A DNA stretch of 27,432 nucleotides, from the IMG/VR virus record IMGVR_UViG_2695420763_000018. One strand, written 5' to 3'. This document shows positions 4,964 through 21,424 of the stretch, piece after piece. Positions within the stretch are counted from its first letter, which is position 1; each line of letters begins with the position of its first letter. A program made the position numbers and the translations under genes. The notes under the pieces were generated by a model. That model had not been told where the DNA came from and did no database searches. It was given only the letters and a program-made list of their open reading frames with translations. The stretch is from a virus. Its lineage: Duplodnaviria; Heunggongvirae; Uroviricota; Caudoviricetes.

Positions 4964-6439
4964 TTAGGAGCGCCAAAAAAAACCTGAAAACAATATAATA
5001 ACAGGATAAATTTCAAGGCGACCAAGAATCATAGCTATGCACATTAAACATTTTGCAATGTCATTAAGCACTCCGAATGACGATGCAGTAGCCCCAAAAC
5101 CTAATCCCATATTATTAATACATGCAGCCACTGTTGCAAATGATGTAAGAAAATCATATCCCATACCATTTAACACCAGTATAAAAAACACCGTGAAGAG
5201 AGTATAAAGAAAAAAGAAACTCCATACAGACCTCATTACACGATCTGTAACTATCTTCCCTCCTACATTTACACTCAACAACGCTCTGGGATGAGAAAGC
5301 TGATTTATCTCGTGTTTGCTTTGTTTGAAAAGTATAAGAAATCGAAGTGACTTAATTCCACCACAAGTTGAACCTATACATCCCCCAAAGAAACTTGACA
5401 ACAGCAAAAACACTATCGTGTGCGTGGGCCAACTTGCATAATCCTGCGTAGCTAAACCATTATCAGTGAGCATGGAGCTGGCAAGAAAAAACGAATGAAT
5501 AAAACTTCCATGCAAGTCATACATACCTATATGCCAGACCTGGAAAGAGGTAACAATGATCACCCCTAAGGCTATTAACAGAAAGAAACGAAGTTCAATA
5601 TCTCTGATTAAAGGTTTTATCGTTTTCCTGCTAATAACAATATACCAAAGAGTGAAGTTGAAAGCCGATAGCAGGGAAAAAGAACCAGCCACCAGCTCAA
5701 CCAAATAGTTATTAAAATATCCGATACTCTCGCTATGAGTTGAGAAACCACCAAGCGAAACTGTGGAAATCCCGTGACAAATAGCATCAAACAAAGGCAT
5801 TCCTGCAAGTCTATAACAGACAATACAAGCAATACCTAATAAAGAATAAGTTATCCACAGTGTCCGTGACGTATCGGCCAGGCGGGGAGTGAGTTTGTCA
5901 TCCTTAAATGGCCCCGGCATTTCTGACTGATAAAGCTTTGCACCACCAATACCCAATAATGGCAATACAGCAACCGCCAGAACAATAACTCCTAAACCAC
6001 CTATAAAATTTAACTGTGACCGATAGTACAAATATGCCCGAGGTAATGAACTAACATCATCAATTACAGTTGCTCCTGTTGTTGTTATTCCAGAAACCCC
6101 TTCAAACAGAGCATCAATGAACGTTAAATTAAGTTCTGAGTCAATCCATAAAGGGAATGCACTAATAACAGAAAACAAAATCCAAAACATTACAATTATA
6201 ATAAACCCATCACGGGTACGTAATTGAATGCCAGATTTCTTAGTTGTATACCACGCTCCGCCACCAATGCAAAAAAATATAACGAAAGTTATAAAGAAAA
6301 CGAACAGGCTTTTTTCTTTATAAAACAATGCTACAACCATTGGTGGCAACATTGAAAGACTATAGAGCCAAACCAGGAACCCACACATATGAGTAACAAC
6401 TCTTACATGAGATGTATTCATATCTAAATATTCTTTCAA
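4964..6439 (-). CDS. trkG: Trk-system K+ uptake protein TrkG
   Basis: 491-aa polytopic membrane protein with repeated GxGxxG-like pore segments, recognised as TrkG of Rac; gene and flanks are visibly AT-rich relative to the surrounding phage genes. Confidence 0.9.
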   Translation of the reverse strand: MKEYLDMNTSHVRVVTHMCGFLVWLYSLSMLPPMVVALFYKEKSLFVFFITFVIFFCIGGGAWYTTKKSGIQLRTRDGFIIIVMFWILFSVISAFPLWIDSELNLTFIDALFEGVSGITTTGATVIDDVSSLPRAYLYYRSQLNFIGGLGVIVLAVAVLPLLGIGGAKLYQSEMPGPFKDDKLTPRLADTSRTLWITYSLLGIACIVCYRLAGMPLFDAICHGISTVSLGGFSTHSESIGYFNNYLVELVAGSFSLLSAFNFTLWYIVISRKTIKPLIRDIELRFFLLIALGVIIVTSFQVWHIGMYDLHGSFIHSFFLASSMLTDNGLATQDYASWPTHTIVFLLLSSFFGGCIGSTCGGIKSLRFLILFKQSKHEINQLSHPRALLSVNVGGKIVTDRVMRSVWSFFFLYTLFTVFFILVLNGMGYDFLTSFATVAACINNMGLGFGATASSFGVLNDIAKCLMCIAMILGRLEIYPVIILFSGFFWRS

Positions 6440-7517: not shown

Positions 7518-7732
7518 TATTCACCTCTCGCAGCCTTGCGCTTATCTTCTTTAATCTTGAAATAAAGGTTTGTCAGGTACGTCAGCAGGCCAAATACCAG
7601 ACTACCCAGCACACCGATTGCAGCCCACTGTGACGGAGTTACTCTATCGAGCAACTGTAAAAACCAGTAGCCAGCACTGCCTGCGGAGGTGCCGTAGGCA
7701 ATGCCTGTTGAAATTTTGTCCATGGATTTCAT
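7517..7732 (-). CDS. pinholin (phage 21 S-type) with dual-start motif MKSM
   Basis: Matches the S21 pinholin from [26 protein letters not shown] onward; M1 and M4 give the antiholin/holin pair. The 19 codons upstream in the tracked ORF (to 7789) are probably not translated. Confidence 0.8.
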
Positions 7733-18325: not shown

Positions 18326-18748
18326 TTAATGAACAATGACAGAATCGTCGGAAGAACCGCCGCCGCTGAAATGCGCTTTCCGGTAAACGGCTTGGACTGC
18401 ATCATCATGCGCATCAATTGCCGTACTTAACGCTTCCTGCGCCGCCAGTAATGCACGGCGTTCCAGGGTATCGAAGATGCAGAGTCGGTGACGCAGCTCG
18501 CGCGGAAGGATTGCCAGAATTGCTGGGATCAGCTTCTGAATTTTTTCTCTTTGCGTTTTCGTTTCACCTTTCAACCAACGGTGATAGATATTCTGCTGAT
18601 TGTTCCAGTCCTTGCCTGGAACCAGGGGCAATTCGCCGCCCCCCTGGCGCAGATATTCTTCAGTAATTGCATTGGCTACCCATGCCTGCCCTTTTTCGGC
18701 TGCTAGGGCAAACAACACTGATTCGATGTGCTCATGCTTGATTTTCAT
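18326..18748 (-). CDS. ydaT: YdaT (toxic Rac protein)
   Basis: 140-aa ORF recognised as Rac YdaT; immediately downstream of ydaS on the same strand. Confidence 0.85.
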   Translation of the reverse strand: MKIKHEHIESVLFALAAEKGQAWVANAITEEYLRQGGGELPLVPGKDWNNQQNIYHRWLKGETKTQREKIQKLIPAILAILPRELRHRLCIFDTLERRALLAAQEALSTAIDAHDDAVQAVYRKAHFSGGGSSDDSVIVH

Positions 18749-18770: not shown

Positions 18771-19067
18771 TCAGGTATGATCAAATGAGGATTTGTTACT
18801 GTCATTTAGTTGCTTCACTGACATATTCTGCGAACAACATGCCGAACGTCGTAAATATGACCAGTCAATATCAGGACGAAGTTCTTCGCACAGAACCTCA
18901 CCTCTTGTTGCACGTTCAATTGCTGGACATCTCTCGGCAGGCAATTGACGTACCCCTTTGATCCATTGATTTACGCTTGGAGGTGATACACCTAAAAGCC
19001 TAGCCATTGCTGATTGCCCACCGACAACAGCACAAGCTTGCTTGAATGAATAGTTCTCTTTTTTCAT
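18771..19067 (-). CDS. ydaS: YdaS, Cro-like HTH protein
   Basis: 98-aa ORF with HTH segment QSAMARLLGVSPPSVNQWIKG; divergent from racR. Confidence 0.85.
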   Translation of the reverse strand: MKKENYSFKQACAVVGGQSAMARLLGVSPPSVNQWIKGVRQLPAERCPAIERATRGEVLCEELRPDIDWSYLRRSACCSQNMSVKQLNDSNKSSFDHT

Positions 19068-19096
19068 CGAATGAACTCCAAAAACACACAGAAATA

Positions 19097-19161
19097 TTAG
19101 GCGACGCCTAACGCAATTGTCAATAGGCTGTGCCTAATGCGGTAAGGGTAGGGATTGCCTA
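19097..19161. promoter_or_regulatory. three operator-like sites TAGGC-N3-GCCTA in the ydaS/racR divergent promoter region
   Basis: TTAGGCGACGCCTAA (19097-19111), ATAGGCTGTGCCTAA (19123-19137), TAGGGATTGCCTA (19149-19161, one mismatch); centre-to-centre spacing about 25-26 bp. Confidence 0.6.
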
Positions 19162-19190
19162 ATGTAATGCGCATAGGAGAATATTAAGCA

Positions 19191-19667
19191 ATGCTTAGTG
19201 GTAAAGACTTAGGCCGAGCGATAGAGCAGGCCATTAACAAAAAAATCGCATCGGGATCCGTCAAATCAAAGGCGGAGGTCGCACGCCACTTTAAAGTCCA
19301 ACCACCATCAATTTATGACTGGATTAAGAAAGGCTCTATAAGTAAAGATAAACTTCCAGAATTATGGCGTTTCTTTTCTGATGTTGTTGGTCCAGAGCAT
19401 TGGGGGCTTAACGAATACCCCATACCAACCCCCACCAATTCAGATACAAAAAGTGAACTTTTAGATATAAACAACCTTTATCAAGCAGCCTCTGATGAAA
19501 TAAGAGCGATTGTAGCTTTCCTGTTATCTGGAAATGCTACAGAACCAGATTGGGTTGACCACGATGTTCGCGCCTACATAGCAGCGATGGAAATGAAAGT
19601 GGGTAAGTATCTGAAAGCTCTTGAATCTGAACGGAAAAGCCAGAACATCACAAAAACTGGAACTTAA
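19191..19667 (+). CDS. racR: Rac prophage repressor RacR
   Basis: 158-aa ORF recognised as RacR; HTH near the N-terminus; divergent from ydaS. Confidence 0.9.
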   Translation: MLSGKDLGRAIEQAINKKIASGSVKSKAEVARHFKVQPPSIYDWIKKGSISKDKLPELWRFFSDVVGPEHWGLNEYPIPTPTNSDTKSELLDINNLYQAASDEIRAIVAFLLSGNATEPDWVDHDVRAYIAAMEMKVGKYLKALESERKSQNITKTGT

Positions 19668-19764
19668 ACTTATATGGTCTGACGGAAAACTCCTGGATTC
19701 CGTTATTTAACCCCCCCATCACTTTCTGCTGTCGCCATCACCTATTAGGTTACGCTCAAAACAT

Positions 19765-19802
19765 TAGGCATAGCCTATTGACAATCAATTAGGCATTACC
19801 TA
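19765..19802. promoter_or_regulatory. two further operator-like sites downstream of racR
   Basis: TAGGCATAGCCTA (19765-19777) and TAGGCATTACCTA (19790-19802), 25 bp apart; 19762-19784 is a 22/23 inverted copy of 19127-19149. Confidence 0.55.
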
Positions 19803-19975
19803 TAGTTCCAGCATACCACCCACCCCGCCCCACAGAACGCCGGGCAATACTTCGAGTTACCAGGCAGTGATAAGGGGTTAAGTAGCCAGCCCGAGGCGTA
19901 TGAACATGACGGCGGGATTCAAATTTTGCAGTGCAGCAGTTAGTTCCGCCACCCGGCGTTAAGGGGAGAGATAAG

Positions 19976-20110
19976 ATGGTGCATTACGAAGTAGTTCAGT
20001 ATTTGATGGATTGTTGCGGTATCACTTACAACCAGGCTGTGCAGGCTTTACGCAGCAACGACTGGGATCTCTGGCAGGCAGAAGTCGCTATACGTAGCAA
20101 CAAGATGTGA
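19976..20110 (+). CDS. ydaG: small protein YdaG (44 aa)
   Basis: ATG 19976 preceded by GGGGAGAG; product MVHYEVVQYLMDCCGITYNQAVQALRSNDWDLWQAEVAIRSNKM; matches the length and position of K-12 ydaG. Not in the supplied ORF track (under 60 aa). Confidence 0.6.
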   Translation: MVHYEVVQYLMDCCGITYNQAVQALRSNDWDLWQAEVAIRSNKM

Positions 20111-20120
20111 GATTCGCAAA

Positions 20121-20276
20121 ATGCAAAAAATCGACCTCGGCAACAACGAATCCCTGGTGTGCGGCGTGTTCCCCAACCAGGATGGAACGTTCACTGCCAT
20201 GACGTATACCAAAAGCAAAACATTTAAAACCGAAACTGGTGCGCGCCGATGGTTGGAGAAGCACACAGTAAGCTAA
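20121..20276 (+). CDS. ydaF: small protein YdaF (51 aa)
   Basis: ATG 20121 begins 10 nt after the ydaG stop; product MQKIDLGNNESLVCGVFPNQDGTFTAMTYTKSKTFKTETGARRWLEKHTVS. Confidence 0.6.
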   Translation: MQKIDLGNNESLVCGVFPNQDGTFTAMTYTKSKTFKTETGARRWLEKHTVS

Positions 20277-20761: not shown

Positions 20762-21202
20762 ATCAATAACTCTCAACTGTAAGGGTATTGAAATGTTAAC
20801 ACAAGCTCTCGCTGTAGGGGTATAGCCGAGACCACCGAAGCCCGGAGGTGGTGAAATAAAACCGGGCACAACACGAAGGCGCATTTCCGATATCCATAAA
20901 GAGTCGGTCTTGTCTGTTAAATTTAAATGGTGGGAGTGCGCCTCCGGTTGTAAATAACGACATTGCTGTGTGTAGTCCTGGCGGCATCAGTTTTTTTCTT
21001 GAAGTTCGGCTGATGTCCGCCCTTTTTAAAGTGAATTTTGTGATGCGGTGAATGCGGCTAAGCGCACGTGGCACAGTTAAAAGTCATGTTAGTCCTTATT
21101 GGTTTGGGTGGGAAAGCCGACTGTAATTGTTAACTGGTTGCAGTCACCTGGAGGCACCAGACACCGCATCAACAAAGTTCATTTGTAAAAATGGAGATAA
21201 TT

Positions 21203-21424
21203 ATGATTGCACATCACTTCGGAACTGATGAAATACCACGTCAGTGTGTGACTCCTGGCGATTATGTTCTTCATGAAGGCCGGACATATATTGCCTCGGC
21301 AAACAATATTAAAAAGCGAAAACTATATATTCGTAACCTGACCACAAAAACATGCATTACTGACCGCATGATTAAAGTCTTCCTCGGTCGTGATGGTTTA
21401 CCTGTAAAGGCGGAGTCATGGTGA
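21203..21424 (+). CDS. kilR: KilR, FtsZ-targeting killing protein
   Basis: 73 aa from [26 protein letters not shown]...; GGAG 8 nt upstream of ATG 21203. Confidence 0.85.

Follow-up and report, generated by a model that had tools for sequence, protein, structure and literature searches.

The pair of TAGGC-N3-GCCTA sites lying immediately 3' of racR (19765 and 19790), together with a near-consensus promoter interleaved with them, is predicted from sequence to be the OL/PL region of the Rac prophage. It is very likely that, with the sites of the racR-ydaS intergenic region, this pair makes up the operators of the Rac immunity region, in which two inverted, RacR-controlled promoter cassettes flank the repressor gene. 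The right-hand half of this arrangement, comprising the sites at 19098, 19124, 19149 and 19185 as RacR operators and the repression of PydaS, is already known from published work. As far as the searchable literature shows, the left-hand half has not been described, and it is what the lambda paradigm would lead one to expect. The comparisons set out below indicate that the PL promoter and the OL pair exist, are conserved and form part of the immunity module; from these we infer direct binding of RacR to OL and repression of PL.

[quoted passage not shown] Rac is a defective, cryptic prophage. RacR belongs to the small number of essential transcription factors in E. coli K-12, and when it is lost the toxic YdaS/YdaT and KilR are released and Rac is excised. 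The racR (plus strand) and ydaS (minus strand) genes are separated by a gap of 123 bp that holds four TAGGC-N3-GCCTA sites and PydaS. Beyond ydaG the plus strand carries ydaF, kilR, ydaE, racC, recE, recT, ralR, rcbA, xisR and intR, with sieB on the opposite strand. RacR (158 aa) scores above the curated equivalog cut-off of NCBIfam NF049929 (200 bits); a Pfam search detected no S24 peptidase domain in it, and no solved structure was matched at an E-value of 1 or below. The features of the region are as follows.

18326-18748, minus strand: ydaT (MG1655 annotation)
18771-19067, minus strand: ydaS, Cro-like gene driven by PydaS (Pfam matches YdaS_toxin and P22_Cro)
19094-19123, minus strand: PydaS, PR analogue; TTGACA (19123-19118), 18-nt spacer, TAATAT (19099-19094), from the promoter scan
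19098-19110, no strand: operator TAGGCGACGCCTA, 0 mismatches, racR-ydaS side; spans the PydaS spacer and the first two -10 bases
19117-19139, no strand: inverted-repeat arm; PydaS -35 hexamer, adjacent operator and flank
19124-19136, no strand: operator TAGGCTGTGCCTA, 0 mismatches, racR-ydaS side; adjoins the PydaS -35 hexamer on its upstream side
19149-19161, no strand: operator TAGGGATTGCCTA, 1 mismatch, over the racR promoter region; centre 36 bp 5' of the racR ATG
19185-19197, no strand: weak operator TAAGCAATGCTTA, 2 mismatches, over the racR start codon; the ATG lies in and beside the N3 spacer
19191-19667, plus strand: racR, repressor gene between both operator sets (NCBIfam RacR equivalog, 244.6 bits)
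19762-19784, no strand: inverted-repeat arm; OL2 and PL -35 hexamer
19765-19777, no strand: OL2-like operator TAGGCATAGCCTA, 0 mismatches; adjoins the predicted PL -35 on its upstream side, 97 nt past the racR stop codon
19778-19806, plus strand: predicted PL analogue; TTGACA (19778-19783), 17-nt spacer, TATAGT (19801-19806), 11/12 to consensus, from the promoter scan
19790-19802, no strand: OL1-like operator TAGGCATTACCTA, 1 mismatch; spans the predicted PL spacer and the first two -10 bases
19813-19975, plus strand: predicted PL transcript leader; 85-98% identity with thousands of E. coli prophages having other immunity modules
19976-20110, plus strand: ydaG (MG1655 annotation)

With at most one mismatch the motif occurs six times in the 27.4-kb window, against 0.36 expected, a count reached in none of 100 shuffles, and five of the six matches fall inside the 705 bp between 19097 and 19802. 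The sixth, at 7695-7707 inside the tail-fibre gene stfR, fits the chance expectation of 0.36. When two mismatches are allowed, the total for the whole window is seven compared with 7.4 expected, which is not significant by count alone; the signal therefore resides in the clustering of the sites and the quality of the matches. Start-to-start spacings are 26 bp (19098/19124) and 25 bp (19124/19149) on the racR-ydaS side, and 25 bp (19765/19790) downstream of racR. An earlier note on this DNA had proposed three sites at steps of about 25 bp in the ydaS/racR divergent region, two more just 3' of racR and a distance of about 640 bp between the sets, and all three proposals are borne out, the last by centres at 19130 and 19771 that lie 641 bp apart. 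The fourth site at 19185-19197 and the promoter hexamers between the sites are absent from its list. Read with their flanks, the 19765 site (aTTAGGCATAGCCTAtt) shows no mismatch and the 19790 site (aTTAGGCATTACCTAta) one mismatch to the published consensus T/A-TAGGC-n3-GCCTA-T/A. No third OL site with up to two mismatches is found about 25 bp 5' of 19765, and the 25 nt upstream of this site are of random identity among relatives.

A 23-bp inverted copy shared by the two sets had also been reported. The repeat is real, the reverse complement of 19762-19784 matching at 22 of 23 positions, but its partner is 19117-19139 and not the arm originally assigned, 19127-19149, which is 10 nt off and matches at 1 of 23; a repeat search extends the inverted arms to 19116-19150 and 19751-19785 (35 nt, 83%). 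A scan of 18900-20150 for the sigma-70 consensus returns exactly two strong promoters, PydaS and the predicted PL, both facing outwards from racR. The latter would start transcription near A19813 and, by gene order, reads into ydaG-ydaF-(sieB opposite)-kilR-ydaE-racC-recE-recT-ralR-rcbA-xisR-intR. In both promoters one operator adjoins TTGACA and the next, 25-26 bp further on, extends over most of the spacer into the first bases of the -10 element, and alignment of PydaS (reverse complement) to the PL region reveals a common cassette in which the spacer length differs by one base. Since the inverted copy combines an operator with a -35 hexamer, each set mirrors the other as an operator-promoter cassette facing away from racR. 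Sequence inspection for a YdaT box at PL finds just the half-site AATCAA (19783-19788), with no partner at N6.

The racR-ydaS set is an established target of RacR. Three variant GCCTAA/TTAGGC repeats were described in this intergenic region by Krishnamurthi et al. (2017), and binding of RacR was demonstrated by EMSA (three complexes), thermal shift and ChIP-qPCR (PMC5700373). According to a subsequent study from the Mruk group (PMC9638921), a RacR DNase I footprint extends over the racR-ydaS region, with the ydaST promoter covered at the lowest protein concentration; the consensus cited above was derived and the operators named, one coinciding with PydaS and one overlapping the racR ATG. The same study reports that PydaS (TTGACA/TAATAT) was mapped by primer extension and mutagenesis, that racR has three promoters and that its mRNA is leaderless. 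Later papers of the group count four inverted repeats in the region (PMC11014345, PMC11879457). The assignment of the sites to RacR in the earlier note is thus well founded for the racR-ydaS set, on the basis of the EMSA and ChIP-qPCR (PMC5700373) and the DNase I footprinting (PMC9638921). Sites or a promoter 3' of racR, ydaG or sieB as a target, and looping, go unmentioned in the accessible parts of PMC5700373, PMC9638921, PMC11014345 and PMC11879457. Searches of open-access papers and preprints, EcoCyc and RegulonDB, where the element may be on record already, being outside their scope, returned no description of a Rac OL/PL, of looping by RacR or of genome-wide RacR binding, and a search of open-access papers and preprints found no published experiment on RacR at 19765/19790 or on a transcription start near 19813.

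In the proposed scheme, the operator unit would be the 17-bp ATTAGGC-N3-GCCTAAT, recognized by RacR dimers. The right cassette (19098 and 19124) is PydaS, the analogue of PR, whilst the left cassette (19765 and 19790) would be an unnamed PL analogue driving ydaG-ydaF-kilR-ydaE-racC-recET-ralR-rcbA-xisR-intR. RacR dimers on both operators of a cassette would occlude RNA polymerase from the -35 and -10 elements, as shown for the right-hand cassette and by extension expected of the left, so that a single repressor would silence the two divergent early operons. Negative autoregulation would come from the sites 19149 and 19185, which lie over the racR promoters and start codon.

The downstream cassette recurs in diverged relatives. 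RacR homologues are widespread; their N-terminal domain hardly changes from one to the next, whereas the C-terminal part varies. Species-representative genomes were scanned, yielding 29 loci, 25 of them non-Escherichia loci with a RacR-like DNA-binding domain, and flanks of 3 kb were searched. Thirteen of these 25 (Mixta, Morganella, Proteus, Erwinia, two Achromobacter, Burkholderia, Sphaerotilus, Comamonas, Rhodoferax, Herbaspirillum and two MAGs) possess a pair of sites 24-26 bp apart, located 68-2490 bp past the repressor stop codon; such a pair was found in none of 5800 shuffled control loci. All 13 pairs share one layout in the sense of the repressor gene, namely a site, TTGACA, about six bases, and a second site running into the -10 element (e.g. 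TAATAT). Five further loci have divergent-side sites but no downstream pair within the 3-kb flank, so that the pair is either not universal or lies farther away in these five. The cassette is also carried by Escherichia phage vB_EcoS-683R6 and by the isolated Klebsiella phage KpF5, whose order is fully lambda-like: three operators, one of which covers the ATG, are followed by the repressor gene, by a DUF450 gene as cargo, by a strong intrinsic terminator and finally by the cassette at 5374/5399. Among loci with clearly readable open reading frames, co-directional cargo genes lie between repressor and pair in L017, L030 and phage KpF5. Over 15 loci the mean pairwise identity is 0.86 for the first site with its -35 hexamer and 0.76 for the second site with its -10 element, compared with 0.27 for the flanks (19-24 nt on either side of the cassette), and the promoter hexamers are conserved as strongly as the half-sites.

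The divergent-side sites are also retained. E. ruysiae, ETEC1746 and phage vB_EcoS-683R6 all carry TAGGCTATGCCTA as the counterpart of the 19124 site; that of the 19149 site is TAGGAATTGCCTA, centred at -34 to -36 (mostly -35) in 16 diverged loci; and relatives have TAGGCAATGCTTA at the 19185 position, over the repressor start codon. Some relatives with the same N-terminal domain match the Pfam S24 family (L030, 1.3e-24; L025, 9.2e-18; L012, 1.2e-13), and the operators and cassette of these S24-fused repressors are the same as those of the RacR type. The DNA-binding domain and the site/-35/site/-10 cassette may form a portable unit, ranging from Enterobacterales to Burkholderiales, with the C-terminal domain swapped between the non-cleavable RacR type and the S24 type.

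Variation within E. coli places the pair inside an exchangeable module. When the racR-ydaG spacer is used as a query, matches in about 3000 E. coli genomes are confined to the part running from query positions 142-154, equivalent to 19809-19821 of the window, to 19975, so that homology breaks off at the predicted PL start. The 5' edge of the PL leader, at about 19813, is on this evidence the left boundary of the immunity module. Two heteroimmune prophages of this kind (L033 and L034) share ydaT and the left operon with Rac, but their repressor is a different, DicA-like one and their cro differs too. Their divergent region and their PL position alike carry another motif, TGaAC-N5-GTaCA. The operator pair thus swaps together with the repressor, which makes it part of the exchangeable immunity module, as expected of OL. 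In heteroimmune relatives ydaS is replaced and ydaT kept, and the far end of ydaS lies near the right edge of the module. An Rfam search found no family in the PL leader or the operators, the only matches being DicF-like and STnc100-like and further downstream, and the fold of the PL leader is not significant (z = -1.69).

The earlier note had regarded the downstream pair as an OL analogue serving mainly as a looping partner of the racR-ydaS operators. The first part of that reading survived all the sequence and comparative tests run; the second overlooked the interleaved promoter. Because a near-consensus promoter directed at kilR/recET runs through the pair, the first-order role of the two sites would be local repression of that promoter. 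That the pair acts mainly through a repressor-mediated loop, with local promoter control secondary or absent, is consistent with the octameric state of RacR in solution reported in PMC11014345, with the cassettes being inverted copies at 22/23 over 23 bp, and with precedents in lambda, 186 and CP-933P (PMC8630535), but we consider it unlikely. The hexamers of the interleaved promoter are as well conserved as the half-sites, the distance to the divergent region varies among relatives from about 0.6 to 3 kb with no preferred value, and homology breaks at the start site, which links the pair to the promoter. Moreover, looping and local repression are not mutually exclusive.

Looping in addition to local repression is another matter. 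By analogy, an octamer of RacR might bridge both cassettes and loop out the 640 bp that contain racR, a suggestion to which we would give slightly less than even weight. It is plausible because RacR is reported to be an octamer by size-exclusion chromatography (PMC11014345), and lambda and CP-933P provide precedents. The authors of that work read the octamer as four dimers on the four contiguous racR-ydaS sites, a reading that needs no loop, and the word 'loop' does not occur in the text available. Somewhat more tentatively still, the octamer may act as two tetramers placed on OL and OR, such that silencing of ydaST and kilR and autoregulation of racR depend on the OL pair; if so, reporter constructs that lack OL would understate repression. 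As OL has two sites, the OL3-OR3 contact of lambda cannot apply as such.

The preferred reading, local repression of PL by RacR, also has to be set against the view that the pair has no function and is left over in a cryptic prophage undergoing decay, either as a relic or through recent duplication of the PydaS cassette. Rac is indeed defective, and the 23-bp identity reaches into the N3 spacer and 3 nt past the -35 hexamer, as duplication or gene conversion could produce. However, the cassette occupies the same position in the 13 distant loci, whose flanks are at the level of chance-like identity given above (0.27), and in two phage records, and it is invariant in an E. coli variant that has diverged by 15%: across the racR-ydaG spacer of ETEC1746, positions 19757-19808 are the same save a single base in the gap that separates the -35 hexamer from the second site, whilst the DNA just upstream is heavily substituted. 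The left operon is, furthermore, de-repressed when RacR falls, and a relic is accordingly very improbable. In published reports (PMC6765115; PMC11014345; bioRxiv 10.64898/2026.09.06.749655), lowering RacR by C.Csp231I or CRISPRi strongly raises the genes of the left operon, ydaC among them, together with ydaST, and ydaG, ydaF, kilR, ydaE, racC, recE, recT, ralR, xisR and intR rise by 40-fold to >70-fold on RacR depletion. This induction fits direct repression of PL and is no proof of it, as the de-repression could be partly indirect, through YdaS/YdaT or prophage excision.

The palindromes could alternatively be RNA hairpin terminators, of racR or antisense transcripts, or sites of a RacR roadblock against read-through from racR into kilR. 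Two minus-strand segments, 19777-19765 and 19112-19096, are picked out by a terminator scan, and read-through from the racR promoters into kilR is dangerous and limited by Rho (PMC4150792). Nevertheless, the stems are of 4-7 bp with loops of 3-5 nt (-2.4 to -7.3 kcal/mol), the sense strand of racR has no T-run after the palindromes, and the half-site bases are 92-100% conserved across 15 loci with no compensatory changes, a pattern that points to recognition by protein and not to RNA structure. The published Rho terminator trac, a candidate for the region 3' of racR, sits inside racR and concerns transcripts from a promoter inside ydaS (PMC4150792). We rate this explanation as highly improbable, whilst a roadblock role besides promoter occlusion may exist. 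An intrinsic terminator for racR was considered at 19680-19708 and discarded, its fold being no better than those of shuffled sequences (z = -1.17).

That the sites are primarily operators of the Cro-like YdaS and not of RacR is barely credible. In its favour, YdaS autorepresses PydaS (PMC9638921), the footprints of YdaS and PaaR2 overlap in CP-933P, where both repress PL933P (PMC8630535), and ydaS is exchanged with racR and the operators in heteroimmune prophages. Against it, RacR footprints directly on the motifs and YdaS is reported not to repress racR (both PMC9638921), and the motif goes with the RacR-type DNA-binding domain, including in proteins that join this domain to an S24 peptidase C-terminus. 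By analogy with CI and Cro of lambda, the sites are probably shared by RacR and YdaS, which is the likeliest arrangement and complements the assignment to RacR more than it rivals it; no experiment on YdaS bound to these sites in Rac was found in open-access papers and preprints.

Published work, in the parts available, takes only the racR-ydaS region as a target of RacR. A defined PL/OL would explain directly how ydaG-kilR-recET-xisR-intR are induced 40-fold to >70-fold upon a fall in RacR, and would add a second binding locus that octamer models must include. With only 0.64 kb from one set to the other, it would also provide a very compact system for a direct test of looping. For a widespread family of repressors, the comparison across loci establishes what the operator-promoter cassette looks like, which helps to annotate immunity regions and to predict heteroimmunity in prophages of many Proteobacteria. 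Conceptually there is nothing new in this arrangement, which is the lambda paradigm again, half of it already known and half expected.

The Rac region has the organization of a lambdoid immunity region in several respects. On the OR side, the repressor and cro-like genes are divergent, as in lambda, and an operator array overlaps the promoters of both; on the OL side, a second operator set lies on an outward-facing early promoter beyond the repressor gene. As in lambda, 17-bp pseudo-palindromic operators about 25 bp apart cover the -35 and -10 elements of two outward early promoters, and the repressor gene, joined by cargo genes in Rac relatives, lies between the operator sets. Operators, repressor and cro are exchanged as a module with edges at the early promoters, as is typical of heteroimmunity, the boundary of the Rac module being located at the PL start. 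The racR mRNA is leaderless like that of cI (PMC9638921). In contrast to lambda CI and LexA, RacR lacks the S24 self-cleavage domain and, beyond the helix-turn-helix fold, bears no sequence relationship to CI. Rac OL has two sites compared with three in lambda, whereas four make up the right-hand set of E. coli Rac; the distance from one set to the other is 0.64 kb compared with 2.4 kb; and YdaS is reported not to repress racR. The published RacR operators have a motif identical to that of the downstream pair and are likewise compared with lambda OR, and there the octamer is placed on four contiguous sites.

A closer counterpart is the PaaR2/YdaS/YdaT system of CP-933P from E. coli O157:H7, with its promoters PR933P, PRM933P and PL933P (Jurenas et al. 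2021, PMC8630535). It resembles Rac in gene layout, in its YdaS and YdaT homologues and in its octameric repressor PaaR2, and a PL with OL operators was predicted beyond the repressor operon, PaaR2 and YdaS repressing PL by reporter assay (PMC8630535). It differs in its operator consensus, which consists of GTTTAGTAA repeats, in the toxin-antitoxin pair between the repressor gene and PL, in the proposal of three OL operators and in that its PL is experimentally shown, that of Rac being predicted. The Qin prophage offers a further parallel: its repressor DicA is short and, like RacR, has no cleavage site (Bejar et al. 1986, cited after bioRxiv 10.1101/2023.04.14.536235), and operator sets lie in the dicA-dicC and dicA-dicBp intergenic regions (same source). 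According to the preprint, dicBp drives a DUF1391 gene, the DicF RNA and a division inhibitor; in Rac, the predicted PL precedes ydaF (DUF1391), a DicF-like sequence and kilR. Qin differs from Rac in repressor family and operator motif, and repression of dicBp by DicA is experimentally established (same preprint).

In diverged relatives (comparison loci L006-L030), three TAGGC-N3-GCCTA operators lie on the divergent side, with centres at approximately 0, -35 and -60 from the repressor start, and the PR promoter is made by the -35 and -60 sites. In this comparison, which covered 19098-19161 of the window, Escherichia Rac carries a fourth operator unit on this side, centred at -87; its PR is shifted outward by one operator and the -35 hexamer adjoining the 19149 site has been lost. 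This extra unit has almost the same sequence as the OL cassette at the predicted early-left promoter, PL (22 of 23 positions in K-12), which suggests that PL and PR are related by duplication or gene conversion. In E. ruysiae, the diverged E. coli variant ETEC1746 and phage vB_EcoS-683R6, which were compared at the K-12 mismatch position alone, the single mismatch is absent because the middle site reads TAGGCTATGCCTA. At the site over the repressor ATG, equivalent to 19185-19197, almost all relatives carry TAGGCAATGCTTA; E. coli Rac carries TAAGCAATGCTTA, with both halves symmetrically weakened. This same stretch is the published off-target site of C.Csp231I, a restriction-modification regulator.

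Betaproteobacteria prophages (L012, L014, L025, L030 and others) encode repressors in which a RacR-type N-terminal DNA-binding domain is joined to a peptidase domain of the S24 (LexA/CI) type, and these repressors are presumably cleaved during the SOS response. In their loci the operators are again TAGGC-N3-GCCTA and the PL cassette is the same as in Rac, and the operator-recognition module is therefore common to presumably SOS-cleavable and non-cleavable repressors. Assigned to a 'Candidatus Nanosynbacter' bin, the 5.2-kb contig JARKOR010000130.1 (L004) encodes a RacR 100% identical to that of K-12 and harbours the same five operator sites as K-12 Rac; this contig is almost certainly an E. 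coli contaminant in the metagenome-assembled genome. Within the tail-fibre gene stfR, a lone one-mismatch match to the motif (7695-7707, TAGGCAATGCCTG) was rejected as an operator, as a single match of this quality is compatible with chance.

Although the repressor C-termini are only ~50% identical across genera, the ~20 nt directly 3' of the racR stop codon (19668-19690, ACTTATATGGTCTGACGGAAA) are conserved between them, and are found just past the repressor stop in L007, L008, L010, L017 and L032. In the Burkholderia locus, L017, the next gene begins with this sequence (ATGGTCAAACGGAAA...); it runs ATG GTC stop in K-12 and the Klebsiella phage KpF5. A coupled cargo gene downstream may have left it behind as a vestige, or it may be a conserved 3' element.

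Transcription from PL would begin with a leader preceding ydaG:

19813-19975, leader from the predicted PL start to ydaG, ~160 nt
19976-20107, ydaG, encoding the 44-aa product YdaG

The leader is 85-98% conserved in thousands of E. coli prophages with differing immunity modules. Its 5' ~40 nt are C-rich and G-poor (ACCACCCACCCCGCCCCACAG), a composition that looks like a Rho loading site. The fold of 19813-19975 falls short of significance (z = -1.69), and Rfam gave no match there. YdaG has a UBA-like Pfam match (UBA_4, E = 3e-5; 24.1 bits, above the cut-off of 21.8).

Further along the predicted PL transcript, two adjoining RNA family matches occupy the sieB-kilR interval:

20967-21022, + strand, DicF-like RNA match, E = 3e-6, 39.1 bits where the gathering score is 48
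21024-21210, + strand, STnc100-like match immediately 3' of the DicF-like match, 28 bits, E = 0.002

The placement of the two matches between sieB and kilR parallels the order ydfA-dicF-dicB in the Qin prophage. YdaF of Rac, like YdfA of Qin, is a DUF1391 protein.
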